Below, one piece after another: positions 1 to 54,940 of a DNA stretch of 64,000 bases. Every line of letters begins with the position of its first letter. Positions within the stretch are counted from its first letter, which is position 1. The DNA comes from Girardia tigrina. Taxonomy: Eukaryota. Made by a program: the position numbers and the translations under genes. The notes under the pieces are model-generated. The model saw only the letters and a program-made list of their open reading frames with translations. It was not told where the DNA came from and did not search any database. The DNA lies in assembly GCA_001938485.1 (NCBI GenBank), contig MQRK01250764.1:33326-97325 (forward strand), read 5' to 3'.

Positions 1-78
1 CAAGAACCTTACTCGATCGACTCATTTGCGAGTGCTCGCTAATCCGGGTTTTGAGATGACGATTTGTCTCTCCGATGT
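1..78 (-). mobile_element. Penelope-like element GIY-YIG endonuclease fragment (target of a LINE insertion)
   Basis: Minus strand reads (H)IGETNRHLKTRISEHSQMSRSSKVL, matching the YIGETxRxLxxRIxEH motif of PLE GIY-YIG domains; runs off the window edge. Confidence 0.75.
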
Positions 79-314
79 GGGCCTCCCATCTCTGTAATGG
101 TATTGAGCCTAAGGCTCTTCAGAGGGTCCACCCAAACTAAAGTCCTTAAGGACCCTCCAATAGGCATCCTACGGGATCAGTGGCCTTCCGCCTCTGAGCA
201 GTCGGCTTGCCAGTAACGAGCGACCAACCATGGAACTTGGTACTATGGCCGTACATGCCGTTGGCTGTTACGGTGGACGCGTAACAACCGCGAAATGGGC
301 ACTTGAATTGTCCT
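79..314 (-). mobile_element. 3' end of RTE-like LINE (last zinc finger + 3' UTR), same family as 27581-30667
   Basis: Translates GQFKCPFRGCYASTVTANGMYGHSTKFHGWSLVTGKP...DPVGCLLEGP*, homologous to GEFRCPFCGC...HGWSFLTGKP...DPVGG in the 28506-30596 ORF; 79-142 is nearly identical to 30602-30667. Confidence 0.9.
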
Positions 315-1162
315 TGCAGTGACACAAATTTTTATCAGTTATTTATAAATATTAAATATATATAAATAAAATCCTATATTTCTTATTTATAAATTTATGA
401 TGGCAAGTCTAAATTCGAACTACCGATAAACAATACAAAAATACCAATGTTATTTTAAATTAATTTAAAATAAACGAACTTAACAATCATTCCAATAAAA
501 CTGAAAGAATATGATAATAATCCTCAATCAATGAACCAGGCTGAAAAAATTATTTTTCTAAAAAAAATAATTTTCCGTCGTCAAACTAAAAACAATTTGC
601 GATTCTCTAATTTTCCAATACTTAATTATTTAAATATCAAAATTACAAATTTCTTTGAATATTGTACATAAATAAATATATTTATTTGGAAAAACACTTG
701 CGTTATGTATCTTCCACAATTTATTTATCGTTATAAATTAATTTTACCGGAAATAATTTATGCTGCAGTTCAAGGGTATCCGTTTGAATTTAATGGAATT
801 TTAGATAAAGATATTCAAGATCTGAATAGATTTATTTCCTGTCTCTGTATTCTTGATTCGAAAGATAAACAGAAATCTGATACAACTGTAATCAGATTGA
901 GCAAGAAAACGTTTCATTATGTTGCAGTATCAAAGATTCGAGTTCGATTCCCGACAGAATAATTGCAACCAAATCCAATGATTTCCGATTGAAATATTCG
1001 ACTAAACGGATGCCCGTTTCGATTCTATCCGCTAAAAATGACGACGATCGCCGCCACCAGGTGCCGAAATCACCGATCCTCGTGTTGGTGGTCGTGAGGG
1101 CGAAGTCGGCCGCTCTGATCGGGATTTACCATGCGGTAGTCGATCACGGCCGACTACAAAAT

Positions 1163-18940: not shown

Positions 18941-21474
18941 ATATTAATTATTATTTTAATAATTATTTTTGTAGGCAAAATTAAGAAATAAATGATAAAT
19001 AATTACATGTTATAATTATATGTAAATATAGAATTATAAATTTTTTTCTAACTTAATTGCCTAACAATTATAATTATTTACTAATTTCTTTATAAATATA
19101 TTAGAAAAAATTTTTTTTGAAATAAAATATATTAAAAAATATAAATAACATAAATTGGTTTAATTATTTTTAAATTATAATACGAAAGAAATTTATCAAA
19201 AAATTATCTCATTTTATCTAACAAAGAAAAAATTGCTTTGAAATTTAAGAAATAATAAATTTAATTATTTCGATAAAATAATTTGGTTTCACGATTCTTT
19301 ATAGATAAAATAAATTAATAAAATTATACATTATTTATTATGAATAAAAGGAATAATTTTTGAAATTTTCTTTATATTTTTTCAAATTATAATTAGTAAA
19401 AGATGCTTTAATCAATAAAATATAAAACGAAATATAAAAAAATATAAAAAGAAATTTGTATAAAATTAAAAAAAAGAAAATATAAGAGGATGTTCATATT
19501 TAATGTTTAAAATAAATTTTATGTTAAAAGTATTATTTAAATGAAAAAAATGAATAATTATTTATATTTTTCCCTATATTCATAGTCTAATTTTTATCAA
19601 AATTTTAGAAAAATTGAGGATTTAGTTCATTCGGAAAAGTACGGATGAATTCCTCTTGTGACATTCTTGGACGGTCGGGAGAATTTGTATCTCGAAGTGA
19701 CATTGACAGTTTCATTATGGTCTTCCCGTGGAGTATTTAAAATTTTCGGAAAAATAAACAGAATTTGGAGAATAATTAGTACTAGTGATATTCGTTCTAA
19801 AATTGGTATTGCAAGCAACGGACAAGAGGAAGCTGTAATTAATTCATTTATCTAAAGAAATTATTTAAAACTTTATTCATATATTTTATATTTATTGATT
19901 TTTCGAAACTTTAAATTATTTATTAAAAAATCTTTAACAAAAATAATATAAATAAAGAAATATTTGAGATTTTAATACAAAAGAAATTGTTTTCGGTATA
20001 AAGAATTATACAAACATATCTTTCTATATCACTTTGGTTTTGATTCTTTTTACTCTCGATAACGTCTTTCTTTATCCTATGCGAATATATATTCATAATC
20101 GAAATTTTAAATTATTTATATATTCAATGAAATTTGTGATTTTGTTTAGTTGTCTGTGTTTTCATATGCTAATGTGTTCACTTGCCAGGGGGCTCAGCCA
20201 TCTATCCGCCTTTCAAATGTTTATATATCTGGATACCGTATAAAAGATACAAAAATCACAATTTTTGTAATTCAAAAACTAGCTCGTTTTATGCTTTGGG
20301 AAAATCTCAAGGCCAGATATTATTTTTCATTGAGAAAAAATATTTAAATAAAGCTGAATAAATTCCGAATTAGTCAGTTTAAGATGCTCACCACCTTTTT
20401 ATGCACCTAATTTTTTTGCAAAACCAAATATGAAAAAAATTTATTAAACTTAAATGTCTGATTTACAACTAGAAGTAAATTAATTTTGACAGGAAACCAC
20501 CAAATTTTTTATATAGTACATTTTAGTACAGTATTGAAAACATTTAACGAAAACTATTCAAATATGGAGATTATTGTGGTTAACCAATCAAGCATAATGT
20601 CACGTAGGATGCCTGGGAAACTAGATTTGGTAAAATTCCGTATCTAGACTAAAGTGTCACAAAGCTTGCATTTGCTTGTATGCCGTCCAGTACCGAAATA
20701 GTAGGAGAACTTGTGAACCATAAGACAATGTTATTTCCAAGAGGGTTTATGGAAAAGTTTAAATGGGTCCCGTAATTTTTGGGTGCTTCTAGCTCGAGAG
20801 ACTGAGACTCAAACTAACTCTTGAAAGAATTTTAGACTAATTAGTTCTTTAGATATCCATAACATACCCTCGGGGGTGAGAGAGGTATATAAAACTAAAA
20901 ACTAAAATGCTTAAGTGGCGAAATACGTTTCATTAATTGCGTCATTATTTTAACAAAGTACAATAGAATAAGTTTATGGGGTAGGTATCTAAAATGTAAT
21001 TAAAGAAGAGGACGTTTTGGGTAAAGAGTATAGATTAAACGTTAGGAAGAATTACAAGTTCAACTTAAATAAATTTATTACATCTTCCCCTCGCCAAAAT
21101 ATTTTTTCACTTTTTTTAAAAAACATATTTGGTCGAACTACTTAATAGAGGAAGGAACAATAGGAACCAAAATACTTTCGAATCGGAAGACTTTATGTTT
21201 GCTATACGACGGATTTACTGCATTAATTTTATTTTTATAAAAAACTGTCTCAAAGTTAACTAACGATAAATTTAAAATAATTAATCTGAAACAAGTTAAA
21301 ATTATTTTATCTGAAATGTTTTTTCAAATGAATATTTTAATAAAATTCTCTACAATTAGCAATTAAAAAAAGTGAGATTAAAGAATTTAATTAAAATAAT
21401 TGTAAATAAATTTCAGACAAATTAAAAAAAGCAGGTAAATCAAAATTAAGAAGCAAATTAAAAATAATTTTTGT

Positions 21475-26635: not shown

Positions 26636-27580
26636 AATATTTACACAAAATATATAAAAAATCCATTTAACTAAAACATTGTTTTCGACAAAATATCTCA
26701 TAAACAAAATTTTAGAACTTATATGCAAAGAAATGAATAAATATTTTCTTCCTTCAGTTTCTCTGAACCTCTGTGGAAAAATTTGCAAAAAAATACGTTT
26801 CTGTCGTGAGCCGTTCTCGTCCTCATTAATTCTACCAATTTAAATTGAAACTCGCTTTCTTTTAATCCAAAAAAATAATGCAGTTTAACAATTTCTTCCC
26901 AAAAAAGAATTGATTAACAATTTAGATAGAATCAGTTTTTTATTATATCTGTTGTGTTTCAGGACTCGATTCCTCGGGGACCCCGCTCGGTAATTCTTGC
27001 GGTTCTCTGTTACAAATCTGATAATCATTCCTCAAAGGGAGGATGTTGAGACAATATCGGTAAAACTTTGATCACTGTTTTCCCTTTTACAATTCTTATT
27101 ATTTTCTATTCATTTATTTTTTCATTTAATTTCAATTTTTACAATAAATATTTTAAAATATTACAACAATTATTATTTAAGGTATTCTTAAAGCATATCA
27201 CAAATTTCGTGAACTAAATATGATTTTAAAACCGTTTTTGATCATTATGAATACTTTTTTAGAATATTTATTGGTATTTGTTTATTGGTATAAGTAAATT
27301 GATGGTGTAGCTATGTGATTCCCATTAGCATCAACAATTGCTTCAATTTTTCGGTCTTGGATAGAGGATGTTGGAAAAATGTTTTGCACAAGATTGACAC
27401 ACACAGAAGTATAAATAAAGATATGTTATTTAAATATAAATACATAATATTCGTCTTTCATCCTTTTTCCTCATGTAACCACAATAATTAAAGTGTTTAA
27501 TCCAGCAATTAATATCGTGTAAGTGACTCATTAACTTTGCTGAAAGTGTTTGAGTGAAACATTAATTACATAAGTTATTG

Positions 27581-30500
27581 GACTGCGTGTTGAAAACACA
27601 TTTTACAAGAAAAAACTTAGCCAAAGAACGAGCTGGACTCACCCAGCAACATCTAGGAGATCATTACTTGATCTCTTTCTTATTGAAAGGAATCGAGCTA
27701 ATAGGTACACTGACATCCGAAGCTACCCAGGATTTGACTGTGGCTCCGACCACGATCTGGTAGTTATAACTGCCAGAGTCAGAGAAGAAGGAAAAAGCCC
27801 GAAGAGGCTAAGAAACGACAGAAACACGCGCAAGCACAAAATGCCAGATCGAGAAGCAATCATGAAGAAAAAAGAAACGATAATTGAAACATTTCCACAT
27901 GTTCAATTTTCAGGTACCGATTGGAAGTCCACCAATCAACAGATCTGCGATGTTGTACGAGGAGCAAGCACAAGATCAAAGCGAACTCCTCCGAATCATA
28001 AATGGCTACATGGTCACCTAGATGAGTTAATGATACTTATTGGAGAAAAATGGGCGAGACGCACTGAGTTTGTGAGGAATAAAAACAACGACACTTTTTC
28101 CAGGTGGAAATCCAGCAGAATACTTCTTCAGAGGAATATCAGAAGATGGAAACGTGAAAGAGTCGAGGCTCTAGGCGAAAAAATCGAGATGATACTAAAC
28201 AATAATGGAGAAGGAAAACTGAAGGAGCTCACTACGGAACTGCGTATCCTCTGTAAATCACAATCGAAGGAGAACACCCTGTGTACTCCCTCGAACCCTA
28301 TTGGGAACAAGGAACTAACAAACCACTTCAATAATCTTTTTAAGGCTCCATTAGAGCAGAAGGAACGGACTGATATCGCTGGAGACACTCTAAATCTCGA
28401 TGATTTGGATTCTCCTCCGACGAGAGAAGAAATAACAGAGGCAGTGAAGCAGTTGAAGAGTGGGACAGCCGCGGGATCTGATGGATTGATCCCTGAAATC
28501 TATAAGTGGGGGGTGTGAAAATACTAACCCTATTGGAGGAGTGCTTTAGGAACATGTGGAACGGATTAGAGGCATTCCCATGTAGTTGGAGAGAGGCCAA
28601 AGTGGTGGTTCTTTTCAAAGGGAAAGGCTCTCGAAAAGATCCAAATAACTACCGAGGCATTTTTCTTTTAGATGTAGGAAGAAAGATTCTAGCCAGAATC
28701 ATCGCGAACCGAATCACTCCGATCACCGAAGCGATACTGGACGAGTGGCAGTATGGATTCCGGCCGGGAAGAGGAACTCAGTTGGCTATAAGTATCTTGA
28801 GGAAATTNNNNNNNNNNNCGCGATACAAGAACATTAATATGTATGTTATCTTTATCGACTTAGAGAAGGCATTCGACAGTGTCCCCCGGGAGTCTCTCTG
28901 GAGCTGTTTAAAGAGACTAGGGATAAGGGGGCGAATGTTAAATATCATCAAAGCTTTCCATGAGGGATTCGAAGGCTTTATAGGTGATGAAACTTTCAAA
29001 ATTGATAAAGGAGTGCGTCAAGGTTGTGTTTTAGGGCCGCTCCTGTTCAATATTGTATTCGACACGGTTGTGAAAAGAACAATATTGAACGGTCTCTCTG
29101 GAGGAGTGATGATGAAACATGAAGATGGAAGCTTCCTTGAGATCAACAGACTAGCTTATGCTGACGATCTCTGCCTCATCGACACGGACTGGAACAACTT
29201 GATAAATAATTTGNNNNNNNNNNNNNNNNNNNNNNNNNNNNNNNNNNNNNNNNNNNNNNNNGGTAAAACCAAAGTTTTGAACCTAAACGGAGATACTCGG
29301 ATCCTTACTGCTGGGCACCAGCTTGAGGCCGGTATTGAGTGGGTCTCTAGCTTTTGTTACCTAGGATCCACGATCTCTTCAGCGGGAAATGTGGACTCGG
29401 AAGTGAAAGAAAGAATCAAGAAAGGAACCCAGAAGATCCGGGATCTGAGACCACTGCTGAAGAGCTCCAAGCTGAGTATGAGGAATAAGAAGAAAGTAAT
29501 CAACGCATGCATATTCTCCGTAGTCTACTACGGTTGTGAAAGCTGGAGAACTGCGGACAAGAACATTAAGAAATTGCATGCCCTTCATAACCTATGCACG
29601 CGCATAGTTAGGAAGAAACACAAAATTGAAAAGATCCGTATGGACATCCTGGACATTGGACTCCCACATCCCATGGATATTATCGCGAGTAAACGGCTTA
29701 CTTTCCACAGTAAGACGGAAACTTCAGAAAAGTACGAGATAATCAAACGAATCTGGAAGGGAGAAATACAAATGTGGAAAAAGATCAGTGGGAGAAAGGA
29801 GCAATCAATTTCGGAATGTCTTCGAGTGGACATACAGTGGCTATTTGGGGATGATGCGATGTATGGAGATTTCATTAACCGCATCAATCACAGAGATCCT
29901 ACTGTATCGAGGGAAACATACATAAACTCCTTAATTCGATCAGGAAGACTCAATAGGACAAGAACAACTGTACCGAAGCTGATCAACGAGAGAGACAAAC
30001 GTAACCAATGTCCAGTAGAAAGATGCTACAAGGAGTTTGCCGAAAAGAAGGAGCTGAACAGACACATGAAAAGGGACCACGCAGTGTCCACTTCTGCTAA
30101 TCCTGATCAGCTCAATGAGATAGAACAACAGCAATTGCCATTCCCATATACACTATGCAAAAAGTCGTACAAAACGAAGGGGTGGCTGACCAGGCACCTC
30201 TACCGGGATCATAAATTGGAGGAGACAGAAGAAATTGGAGAACCGACAATGACACCAGCGAAAACCAGTACAATCACAGAAGAAAGAGTCGTAAAAAATC
30301 TCAACATTTCAGGCAACCAGATTCAATCCGTGACGGACCCCCCGACTATCTCGACGGCGGTGGAAGAAGCGATAGGTACTGAAGAAACACATCTGACTTT
30401 TAGGATTGAAGATCTAACTGCAAGGGGGGAGTTCAGATGTCCCTTTTGCGGCTGTACAAAGTCCACGAATAAAGCCAAAGGTATGCAGAACCATGGCTAT

Positions 30501-30667
30501 ACAACCCATGGGTGGTCGTTTCTCACAGGGAAGCCGAAAAGATCTCGGAGACCGAAACTATCCGACCCCGTAGGAGGCCTATCGGGGGGCTGCTAGTGAT
30601 TCTTTAGTTTGGGTGGACCCTCTAAAGAGCCTAGAGGCTCAATACCATTCGAAAGAGATGGGAGGCC
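27581..30667 (+). mobile_element. 5'-truncated RTE-like non-LTR retrotransposon with 14-bp TSD
   Basis: TACATAAGTTATTG at 27567-27580 and 30668-30681; APE C-terminus (SWTHP, DCGSDHDLV) frameshifted at 27600-27780; RT and zinc-finger tail follow. Confidence 0.95.
27841..30596 (+). pseudogene. LINE ORF2: reverse transcriptase + three C2H2-type zinc fingers; frameshift near the G run at ~28510
   Basis: AAGSDGL, NYRGIFLL, QYGFRPGRGT, FIDLEKAFDSV, GVRQGCVLGPLLF, YADD, YLG, YGCESW; then CPVERC..H..H, YTLC..H..H (first Cys lost) and CPFCGC..H..H. Confidence 0.93.
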
Positions 30668-30915
30668 TACATAAGTTATTGTGTAATCATTTTTAGACAT
30701 GTATAGGCTTGACATCTATGATCAAATGATGACGGATGTTATGTCGAAATATTTTTCAATAAAATTTGTTATCATAAAAGGCCGTTTATTAATTTAAAAA
30801 ATAACCTGCCATTATTTTTTTCAATTTATCAGTAAATTTTATAGATTAGAATGATTTTAAGTGATTCATTACAAAATTACAAATTCATTTACACATTGTA
30901 CACATACACATAAAG

Positions 30916-40149: not shown

Positions 40150-41141
40150 GAGGAATAGTGTTTCCTTTTCTAGATTACATGAATTCGATTCATCCAAATA
40201 TAATCTTTACGGTAGAACAGGAAATAAACGGAAAATTACCATTCCTTGATTTGTTAATTGAAAGGAAAAATGATCATTATGAAACTGAAATATATCGAAA
40301 GAAAACTGATACTGGTTTGTACACCTCCATAAACAGTTTTTGTGAGTTTAAATATAAAAGGAATATGATCAAAGGTTTATTATACCGCTCTTGGTCTCTT
40401 TCTTCCACGTTTTCAAAATCTATTAAAAGTATTGATACACTGAGCAAGTTATTGAATAATAACGGTTACTCTAAGTTCATCATAGACAGACTCACTCGTG
40501 AGACTGTAGATAAAATAATCGAAAAAGAAAAAATCAAAAATGAAAAAATTAATACTTTAAACATTGAAAACTGCTTTACACCTGGGTATACTCTAAGCTT
40601 ACCTTACTCCGAGGGTTTTAAACACCTCAAGATTTCGATCTTGAAATCAACAGATAACATTTTAAATTTAAAAANNNNNNNNNNNNNNNNNNNNNNNNNN
40701 NNNNNNNNNNNNNNNNNNNNNNNNNNNNNNNNNNNNNNNNNNNNNNNNNNNNNNNNNNNNNNNNNNNNNNNNNNNNNNNNNNNNNNNNNNNNNNNNNNNN
40801 NNNNNNNNNNNNNNNNNNNNNNNNNNNNNNNNNNNNNNNNNNNNNNNNNNNNNNNNNNNNNNNNNNNNNNNNNNNNNNNNNNNNNNNNNNNNNNNNNNNN
40901 NNNNNNNNNNNNNNNNNNNNNNNNNNAAATTATTGGGAGAGAGTGTCATGTGAAGCATTGTTGATAAGATCATGTGATCCTAAAATCAATGTTCAAACAG
41001 CACTCTCAACTAATTTGTTAAGAGTTTTTGATTAGACTTACATAAGTGATTGTATGATCATTCATTTCTTATATAAAAGCAATAAAGAAGAACATAATCA
41101 GTGATCTGATGATGACGGTTAAACCGTCGAAATATATTATC
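40150..41141 (+). mobile_element. Penelope-like element (RT C-terminus, gap, 3' terminus)
   Basis: YMNSIHPNIIFTVEQEINGKLPFLDLLI...IYRKKTDTGLY...NNGYS...LPY is a classic PLE RT thumb; hammerhead motif at the 3' end. Confidence 0.92.
41103..41141 (+). ncRNA. Minimal type I hammerhead ribozyme motif
   Basis: GAT-CTGATGA-T-GACGGT-TAA-ACCGTC-GAAA-TATAT-T-ATC: intact core, perfect 6-bp stem II, palindromic ATATAT stem III, 3-bp stem I. Confidence 0.7.
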
Positions 41142-50879: not shown

Positions 50880-51925
50880 AACTAGAAAAAGCTGGAATAA
50901 TCCGAAGATCAATATCACCTTTGGTTTCACCGTTACATAAAGTCCCGAAAAAGGCGGCTCTATAAGACCATATGGACATTATCGTATCTAAAACAATCAA
51001 ACACAACATGATAGTTACCCATTACCTTTAATCACAGATATATTGAATAGATTAGGTGGCTCTATGATTTTTTCAACAATAGATCTTCAAAAAGCTTATC
51101 ATCAGATGCCAGTCGCGCCTGCTGATATACAGAAAACGGCCATTATTAGCCCATTTGGTTTATTTGAATATTTATATATGCCTTTTGGACTGAAAAACCC
51201 TGCCCAAACATTTCAAAGACATATAGACAGAATACAACTAGATTTACCTTTTGCAATAGCGTATATAAATGATATTTTAATAGCTTCTTGTAATGAAGAA
51301 GAACATTTAAAACATTTATTACAACTGTTCCATCAACTGCACATAAATAATTTACAGATTAATTGAAATAAATGCTCTTTCTTAAAATCCTCTGTTAATT
51401 ATTTAGGACACTTAATTTCTAAAGGTCATTCACTAACACCAGATAGACTACGTAACATAGATAACATAACTCTTCCAGTAACTGTGACAAAATTGCGAAG
51501 TTTTTTAGGTACCGTTAATTTTTGTCATAGATACATACCAAATTGTTCAGAACTTACAACAGATTTATCAACAATCAGTTCTGGACCTAAAATTACATGG
51601 ACCGATCAACTTCACTCTAATTTTGAAATAATTAAAAATAAATTACAGAACATCAAAATACTTAGCTTTCCGCAAAAAGATTCTCCATTATATCTAACGA
51701 CATTATATCTTATGTATCTGCTGGGGCCCGTTCTTCACCAACTAGTTAACAGACAACACCAACCCCTAGGGTTTTTTTCAACTAAATTTTCGTCTACTGA
51801 ACAACGCTATTCAACTTTTGACCGTGAACTTTTATCGATTGTGCTAACTGTTAAACATTTAAAACATTTTCTGGTCACAAAACCATTCAATACAAGAACT
51901 GATCATAAACCTTTGTTCAATATGA
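50880..51925 (+). mobile_element. Gypsy pol relic (RT-RNase H)
   Basis: FSTIDLQKAYHQ, KTAIISPFGLFEY, MPFGLKN, YINDILI (YxDD degenerate), LRSFLG, RYSTFDRELL, TDHKPL; contains stops and frameshifts. Confidence 0.93.
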
Positions 51926-52025
51926 TTATGAGGAATATTTTGAATGTTTGATGTTTTGTGTTTGATTGTTGCATGTTCATTTATAATTGTGTCTCTCCTA
52001 TCCAGATGGATGATTAATATTGGAA
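51926..52025 (+). repeat. Dispersed bipartite repeat copy truncating the Gypsy pol
   Basis: TATGAGGAATATTTT, TG-rich spacer, GTGTCTCTCCTATCCAGATGGATGATT. Confidence 0.75.
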
Positions 52026-54200: not shown

Positions 54201-54940
54201 AGGTGGAACAGCATTAGAAGGAATTCAAACTTTGTGATCTTCTTTCTTTCCTCCACATTGGAAAAAGACGCATGTCTCATCCGCTATGTTGGAATATGCT
54301 TCATCACCCATCTGTGAAATTACATGGCGCATATGCTTTGCAGTGTTAATGTGTTGTTTATTAGCAGCAGAAAGTTCGTGAGGGACCCAAACAGAGCAAA
54401 CTTTTTTGTAATGAAGTTTTTCACGCAAAATTTTGTGGACTGTATTTTTGCCTAAAGAAAGTTCATTTTCAATATTACGCAAAGACGCAATCACTTCTTT
54501 AACTGCTTTAATCTTTTCATCGTCTATTAATGACGGCCTGCCACTTCTTGATGAATCGTCGAAGGACGTCCGCTTTTCTTTTTTAAAATCAGTCAACCAT
54601 TGTTGAATAGTTTTCAGTGCAGGGTGATTTGCGTCTTCCCATGCCAACTGAAGTTGCTGGATAATTTCTGAAGCAGAGAATCCTCTTTTACTTTGAGATA
54701 GAACAAAAAAACGTTGCCAAAATTTATTTGGCTCCATTGATAAAAACAGCTTGATTTGAATTCGCTGCACTTTTAAAATTTCAATACTTTAATGAAATCA
54801 AATTTTACTTTTTTTTAATTTTTAGCTTTGAAATTTTAACACAGTATTTATGACAGTCTGAATAATATTCAGTCAAAATTTGGTAAAATACTAGTGTGTT
54901 TTTAAAGGCCACCTGAGGACTTTTGGGACAGCCTAAGTAT
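54200..54940 (-). mobile_element. mariner element 5' half, joined to the LTR-element body
   Basis: HTH region, SRSGRPS, VCSVWVPHELS, IADET; TIR-like GACTTTTGGGACAGCCTAAGTA at ~54918-54939. Confidence 0.85.

Follow-up and report, generated by a model that had tools for sequence, protein, structure and literature searches.

What is conserved at the 3′ end of a zinc-finger LINE of the planarian Girardia tigrina, and what is it for? The question is raised by a 64,000-nt stretch (contig MQRK01250764.1, positions 33,326 to 97,325, forward strand; hereafter the window), in which a tail beginning at 30598 (+), directly 3′ of the stop codon of a 696-aa reverse transcriptase (RT) frame with C2H2 fingers, recurs behind a second coding fragment. 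A preliminary description took this tail for a ~65-nt 3′ UTR forming a three-way junction closed by CCTC/GAGG, and proposed that it acts in RT recognition or 3′-end formation, perhaps as a ligand of the C2H2 tail. Here we analyze the tail, its relatives in the same genome and their insertion sites. In our best reading the junction is the stringent template-recognition tail of an R2-like, rDNA-preferring lineage of the RTE group; we give a probability of about 70% to its core, namely that the conserved stretch is the precise 3′ end of the LINE and that its RNA junction serves as a template handle for the element's own RT.

Tail copies and their conservation

A covariance model of the tail finds exactly two matches in the window (30611-30671 on the + strand and 76-133 on the − strand). 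The first belongs to a family-A LINE copy (27580-30667) flanked by 13-bp duplications, whose 3′ end (30598-30667) is precise and without a terminal repeat; this LINE is a high-copy APE-RT element with three zinc fingers. The second is a short fragment of another family, B, that ends in Penelope GIY-YIG sequence (Table 1; the empty Penelope site gives a Pfam GIY-YIG match with E 1.4e-4 and 22.5 bits, against a cut-off of 22.6). The two copies thus lie where the preliminary description placed them, with near-identical tails and diverged proteins (37% identity over the last 317 aa, P0001 versus P0004 type).

Table 1. Features of the family-A copy and of the family-B fragment in the window
Feature	Position	Strand	Basis or remark
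Penelope GIY-YIG coding sequence, resuming at the motif's second Tyr codon (insertion target)	1..78	−	
Family-B short 3′ fragment, same tail	79..325	−	
Target, upstream half, with GTG at −14..−12 and T at −1	27554..27567	+	Sequence; motif counts at other sites
13-bp target-site duplication, 5′ copy	27567..27579	+	
5′-truncated family-A LINE body: APE end, RT, three zinc fingers	27580..30596	+	Frameshift near 28510; stop 30594-30596
Predicted hairpin H0 in the last codons (PVGGLSG)	30566..30587	+	Synonymous sites frozen; pair probabilities about 0.8-0.99
Family-variable spacer (stop codon and TTTAG), also the 5′ strand of the competing long hairpin H1	30587..30607	+	
Three-way junction core, predicted	30619..30665	+	P1 30619-22/30662-65, TAAA, P2 30627-31/30636-40, AATA, P3 30645-48/30658-61
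Last element bases	30666..30667	+	Poly(A) or microsatellite tail absent
13-bp target-site duplication, 3′ copy	30668..30680	+	

The genome is large (1.43 Gb) and AT-rich, and both window copies represent families present in many copies (a first look gave 2895 and 2517 candidates). Searching this genome by DNA, protein and pattern yielded 290 non-redundant tails (loci L001-L385), which fall into families A (88), B (67), F (32), E (24), J (22), G (19), C (17), I (16) and H (2), with three outside the named families. Full-length family-A copies measure ~3.85 kb. C-terminal protein identity to family A drops as low as 37%, and the tail is preserved near letter for letter in eight families, its differences being gathered in three interleaved variable patches with indels and the remainder frozen. 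Contigs of four public runs carry the same family variants, coverage being deepest over the shared block and loose ends falling at 30666-30672, from which neither RNA ends nor strand can be read. A metagenome scan with the last finger returned three loci, all unrelated and excluded from every count.

The conserved block is real but longer than described, starting ~35 nt earlier, within the ORF at 30566, where H0 is predicted, and ending at 30667. In the majority sequences of eight families, fourfold sites are identical in 183 of 189 comparisons in the final PVGGLSG codons, against 309 of 610 upstream (last 85 codons), where they approach saturation; conservation thus exceeds that at synonymous sites of the ORF, the comparison on which the preliminary description had staked its claim. 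In family I, a Pro to Leu change in these codons retains a G.U pair. Two variants that had been listed as differences between the two copies are not general. TGAA is private to 2 of 67 family-B copies, and the T of CTAC, thought to preserve pairing with GTGG, coincides with the first base of the 13-bp duplication and is private or target-derived (among 435 loci, eight have a T at this place and five one place earlier).

Other remnants in the window include an internal family-B fragment with two zinc fingers and no tail (2179-2670, −), adjoining an integrase-like frame (1350-2157), and a decayed, SINE2-like HDV-type head (20570-20670, +) at which the covariance model finds no tail. Frames at 40152-40964, 51367-51951 and 54225-54788 resemble Penelope, LTR-element and mariner proteins in their motifs.

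Folding in LINEs, SINEs and a distant family

Folded alone, the stretch originally described is not unusually stable (z −1.0 in both copies). The isolated core adopts the three-way junction in seven of eight families, the exception being F, in which one P1 pair and one outer pair are broken (P1 probability 0.21), and 95% of cells are paired across nine natural LINE copies. The middle hairpin has 5 bp instead of the 6 first assigned, the sixth pair being broken in three of nine rows, and the near-identical LINE families contain no double change in 18 junction pairs (9 rows). When the upstream 50 nt are included, the junction probability falls to 0.00-0.13 in all eight family consensuses and a long hairpin, H1, dominates, formed between the stop-codon spacer and the P2 region (its inner stem has a probability of 0.51-0.99 in 8/8 families). 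The native pairing of spacer and loop is beaten by only 12 of 720 family permutations; families F and B favor their own partner by 3.7-5.0 kcal, and F retains the hairpin through a G.U pair (TTTGG). H1 also contains two double-changed pairs and 14 further pair types; 80 of 500 shuffles attain as many double changes. Taken alone, these predictions for the LINE families favor H1 over the junction. A four-way junction suggested by RNAalifold was rejected, as family F breaks it at column 30.

More distant tails point to the junction. SINE1 (nine copies, one truncated) consists of short ribozyme-headed elements stacked behind LINE tails, and has in common with the LINE only a core of CCTC, TAAA or TATA, a 5-bp hairpin, AATA and GAGG, followed by the target AC; its third arm differs from that of the LINE. 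A model built from six LINE tails detects 9/9 SINE1 tails in 58 kb (E 2e-5 to 0.02). A sequence-only model detects the same nine with similar E-values, and also gives a weak match to family L (41-45% identity to the distant protein P0012), whose tail is built from these parts in the same sequence, with a longer third arm. The junction is the lowest-energy fold in three of four family-L tails (z −2.6 to −2.7), two of four SINE2-type tails and three of five short SINE1 tails. A full-length family-L LINE lies between SINE2 copies (L391, 606-4490), with a 5′ end unlike the A, B and F heads and a short T run at its 3′ end.

Covariation was assessed in a plain MAFFT alignment of 15 author-chosen rows, one per type or copy (five LINE families, three SINE1, three family L and four SINE2). 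In the middle hairpin P2, 74 of 75 cells are paired and four of five pairs show double changes (0/500 shuffles, a test that overstates significance as the rows are related), compared with 19-44% paired in slid controls. In a 14-row comparison, the outer pair is G-C in seven rows and A-U in seven. The closing helix P1 and the third arm P3 are found in each group with differing registers, so that their covariation is topological and not column-wise, and RNAalifold applied to LINE and SINE1 tails predicts P2 and nothing else. The order helix, TAAA, 5-bp hairpin, AATA, arm, helix is retained in LINEs, SINEs and the distant family. The outer GTGG helix, previously presented as a general feature, is absent in SINE1, and H1 is absent in family L and the SINEs; the junction is thus the common denominator and H1 a LINE-only alternative. 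The proposed junction is probably correct in trimmed form, with support from the SINEs and family L and not from the LINE evidence first offered for it. Compensatory changes in a conserved structure, as expected of a stringent tail, are present in P2 over all groups and missing in families A-J alone. The second mark of such tails, a 3′ end common to a SINE with the same insertion signature, is present. SINE1 and the LINE visibly have the tail in common, and one target and one duplication serve them all, which makes the earlier proposal of RT recognition a good inference; self-cleavage, also considered there, and reading of the tail by the zinc fingers find no support.

The prominence of H1 raises the possibility, which we regard as open to considerable doubt, that the LINE tail is a two-state switch, with H1 at rest until a terminating ribosome strips the spacer, so that the junction would be freed at the moment when the protein is complete. 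Such a switch would fit with and extend the template-handle explanation and, if true, the ribosome-unmasked junction would be a structural explanation of cis preference. The stem probabilities, permutation ranks and own-partner energies of H1 are in its favor, but the families amount to only about three independent states, shuffles can equal the double-change count, family B needs a register shift, and family L and the SINEs, lacking H1, would stay permanently open. Tail likeness might instead reflect recent swaps of 3′ ends between families by template jumps in stacked arrays, without structural selection. Different families are indeed stacked at one site (L014, L232, L268 and L321) and loop types are mixed between families (H and I); against this, differences are gathered in interleaved indel-bearing patches of an otherwise frozen tail, and SINE and family-L tails differ in sequence while retaining the pairing, making this a rather unlikely account. 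Least probable is that the junction is a self-cleaving ribozyme or a 3′-end-forming element, for which the precise, repeat-less ends and the A-rich junction strands of fixed length might speak. No Rfam ribozyme matches the tail up to E 10 on either strand, the copies keep the whole tail, the ends in stacks are explained by the 5′ ribozyme of the next unit or by internal priming on read-through RNA, and extra AC dinucleotides at six junctions indicate template beyond the last C. Hammerhead and antisense HDV folds, considered separately, were rejected on the lack of an Rfam match and on unconserved flanks; by inspection, the tail does not contain what we take to be the hammerhead core. The template handle remains the preferred explanation of the junction.

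Insertion sites in Penelope and 28S rDNA

Tails of families A-J stop at a single fixed base. The next two bases are AC in 73/87 family-A, 36/40 family-B, 20/24 family-E and 1/32 family-F copies. A clear target-site duplication is present in 65 copies (11-12 bp in 33 of them), and six copies add an AC that is missing from the target, implying that the template runs past the last C. At 29 sites of families A, B and E (non-Penelope and non-tandem, three more having been dropped as Penelope-like), GTG occurs at −14 in 13, against a background of 6 in 667 positions, with T at −1 in 25 and A at +1 in 24, giving the target consensus GTG-N10-T^AC. GTG is found in 0/10 sites of family F and 1/7 of families I and J. 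The 13-letter site motif gave no match in the literature search.

After exclusion of loci whose query included flank, 65 of 262 sampled copies occupy the Penelope GIY-YIG codon and 197 lie elsewhere. The Penelope motif follows the tail in 21/87 copies of family A, 21/40 of B, 11/24 of E, 8/19 of G, 2/22 of J, 1/17 of C, 0/32 of F, 0/16 of I and 0/2 of H, and in 1/3 outside the named families. Truncation points and families differ, so that these insertions are separate events. A pattern search gave 404 filled and 763 empty exact Penelope sites (many empty matches lying near contig ends), so about a third are filled. Outside rDNA, too, different families and SINEs are stacked in tandem at a single duplicated site (L014, L098, L136, L200, L232, L268, L272 and L321).

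The 28S cases all derive from a single search with P0012, which returned long intact frames. A junction word (ACCACAGGG) is present in five of 30 P0012 loci; Rfam places four of these, on four contigs, in eukaryotic LSU rRNA at GGTGTCAGAAAAGTT^ACCACAGGGAT (model position 2816/2817), and the fifth has the duplication word alone. Two contigs carry stacked LINE and SINE arrays at this base. On one, the order is 28S, SINE1, a complete family-C LINE, SINE1, an element that ends as family K does, and 28S again, with the duplication between each; in another, family-L LINEs and SINE2 are followed by resumption of 28S. In family K the target is the same, but the 3′ UTR is much longer than 1 kb and ends differently (L386-L389, L396, L431-L434, L398 4880-5823 and L416 1-830). 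Its tail is missed by both the covariance and the sequence-only model, and its end is also carried by a ribozyme-headed element without an ORF. The same 28S base is thus used repeatedly in this assembly, by families C, K and L (different tails, RT identity about 40-47%) and two SINE types, in stacks up to four deep. The site matches GTG-N10-T^AC, and GGTGTCA is common to 28S and the Penelope site GGGTGTCAAAACTCGT^ACATCGGAGAG.

Of the 290 tails first collected, none lies in 28S, most copies being outside rDNA, and extending 20 stretches added only one further 28S junction; the assembly is fragmented, and its rDNA has probably been collapsed. An alternative, which we consider possible but doubtful, is that rDNA is not truly targeted, and that 28S and Penelope are simply multicopy good matches to a loosely preferred GTG-N10-T^AC. 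The 197 copies outside Penelope, the roughly 1.8e5 motif sites expected genome-wide (extrapolated from eight in the window) and the presence of the 28S site on only 4-5 contigs would agree with this, but the deep stacking of three families and two SINE types at one 28S base and the filling of about a third of exact Penelope sites argue against it. In the preferred reading of an rDNA-preferring lineage, 28S was probably the original target, and the YIG codons of Penelope would be a mimic of it that is present in many copies.

On one of these contigs, the R2 site of 28S, which lies upstream of where family C is inserted, adjoins sequence that is not rRNA (L397, 3773-4200, −), so two kinds of element may occupy one rDNA unit; the present site lies ~540 model positions downstream of that R2 junction. 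On another, a 5S rRNA match (L417, 3607-3721) lies ~4.5 kb upstream of the 28S array.

Putative ribozyme heads, protein and proposed template recognition

RTE elements use HDV-like ribozymes. Full-length family-A and B/C copies have HDV-type Rfam matches at or within a few bases of the 5′ junction (RF02682/RF00094, E 0.15-0.59, below the gathering score); positions 6-7 of the 5′ fold's P1 vary among families A, B/C and F with pairing kept, and the SINEs carry similar HDV-like heads. The P0004 and P0005 proteins contain Exo_endo_phos_2 and RVT_1 and no other domain, in a single ORF with APE followed by RT and without ORF1 or RNase H, as in RTE elements, and their RT motifs are, we presume, RTE-like. 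The microsatellite-like 3′ tail of RTE elements is missing, families A-J ending at the fixed base and family L in a short T run. The nearest RT relatives are 32-47% identical, some with DUF6451 and none a named element (RT tree of 45 unnamed RTs, without outgroup). Three spaced fingers follow APE and RT; deeper relatives from other sources have these fingers too, two or three in number (P0013-P0018, P0023, P0024, P0033, P0039 and P0044). The RNA tail is common to families whose DNA targets differ, which makes DNA a likelier ligand of the fingers than the tail.

In the proposed mechanism, the LINE would be co-transcribed from a host repeat, 28S rDNA or Penelope, both of which are entered in sense, and the HDV-like ribozyme would free the 5′ end. 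The LINE protein would bind the three-way junction, recognize GTG ~14 bp upstream of the cut, probably via its zinc fingers, and nick the bottom strand at T^AC. A few read-through bases after the tail could then pair with the primer, copying starting at the last C, and a second nick 11-12 bp away would generate the target duplication. Short ribozyme-headed elements with the same junction would borrow the LINE enzyme. A broader proposal, which we put forward only tentatively and hold to be improbable as a whole, is that a three-zinc-finger branch of the RTE group independently evolved the R2 lifestyle (28S site, 5′ ribozyme and SIDE-like parasites), spilled over into Penelope by YIG mimicry and selects its RNA through a ribosome-unmasked junction.

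Structured LINE tails as such are known. According to the ZfL2-1 and ZfL2-2 reports, a structured 3′ end common to LINE and SINE is needed for template choice (PMC4176376, PMC3747384), and the tail binder lies between EN and RT (PMC4176376), not in a zinc-finger tail. Those tails are described there as single, family-specific stem-loops, unlike the three-way junction here, one tail across many families without a terminal repeat. R2 and R1 occupy 28S together with R2 and R2/R1 SIDEs (PMC3414825). The present elements resemble them in 28S insertion, a putative 5′ HDV-like fold, and short ribozyme-headed partners with the 3′ end, the partner's duplication being copied; they differ in having an APE enzyme, probably of the RTE group, that carries fingers at its C terminus, mostly dispersed copies, and SINE bodies that are not simple deletion products. 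RTE-clade LINEs and SINEs show a split insertion signature and primer pairing (PMC6007223). The present elements share with them a lone ORF for APE and RT, 3′ microhomology and a motif that precedes the cut by roughly one turn of the helix; here, in contrast, GTG lies at −14 and not a T stretch at −10, the microsatellite tail is absent, and the multicopy targets are fixed (PMC6007223). Like Tx1, R1 and LIN, the elements target multicopy genes or other transposons, and PMC4640811 names no target-specific clades of the APE type besides Tx1 and R1, the planarian LIN in 28S being NeSL-related with a restriction-like nuclease. In a search of the openly accessible literature, neither an RTE element at this 28S site nor a three-way-junction LINE tail was found.

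An APE element outside Tx1/R1 with a fixed 28S site would mean that rDNA targeting arose independently once more. A natural RTE-type enzyme with site preference and a very small handle on its template would also be of practical interest, as RTE-derived gene writers are called random integrators in a 2026 review (PMC13708176). The ten LINE families and two or three SINE types form a natural mutagenesis series for a 45-nt recognition motif, and sister families with the same RNA and different targets should make the DNA-reading domain mappable. A Penelope mimic of the 28S site would explain how one transposon comes to disable the nuclease of another.
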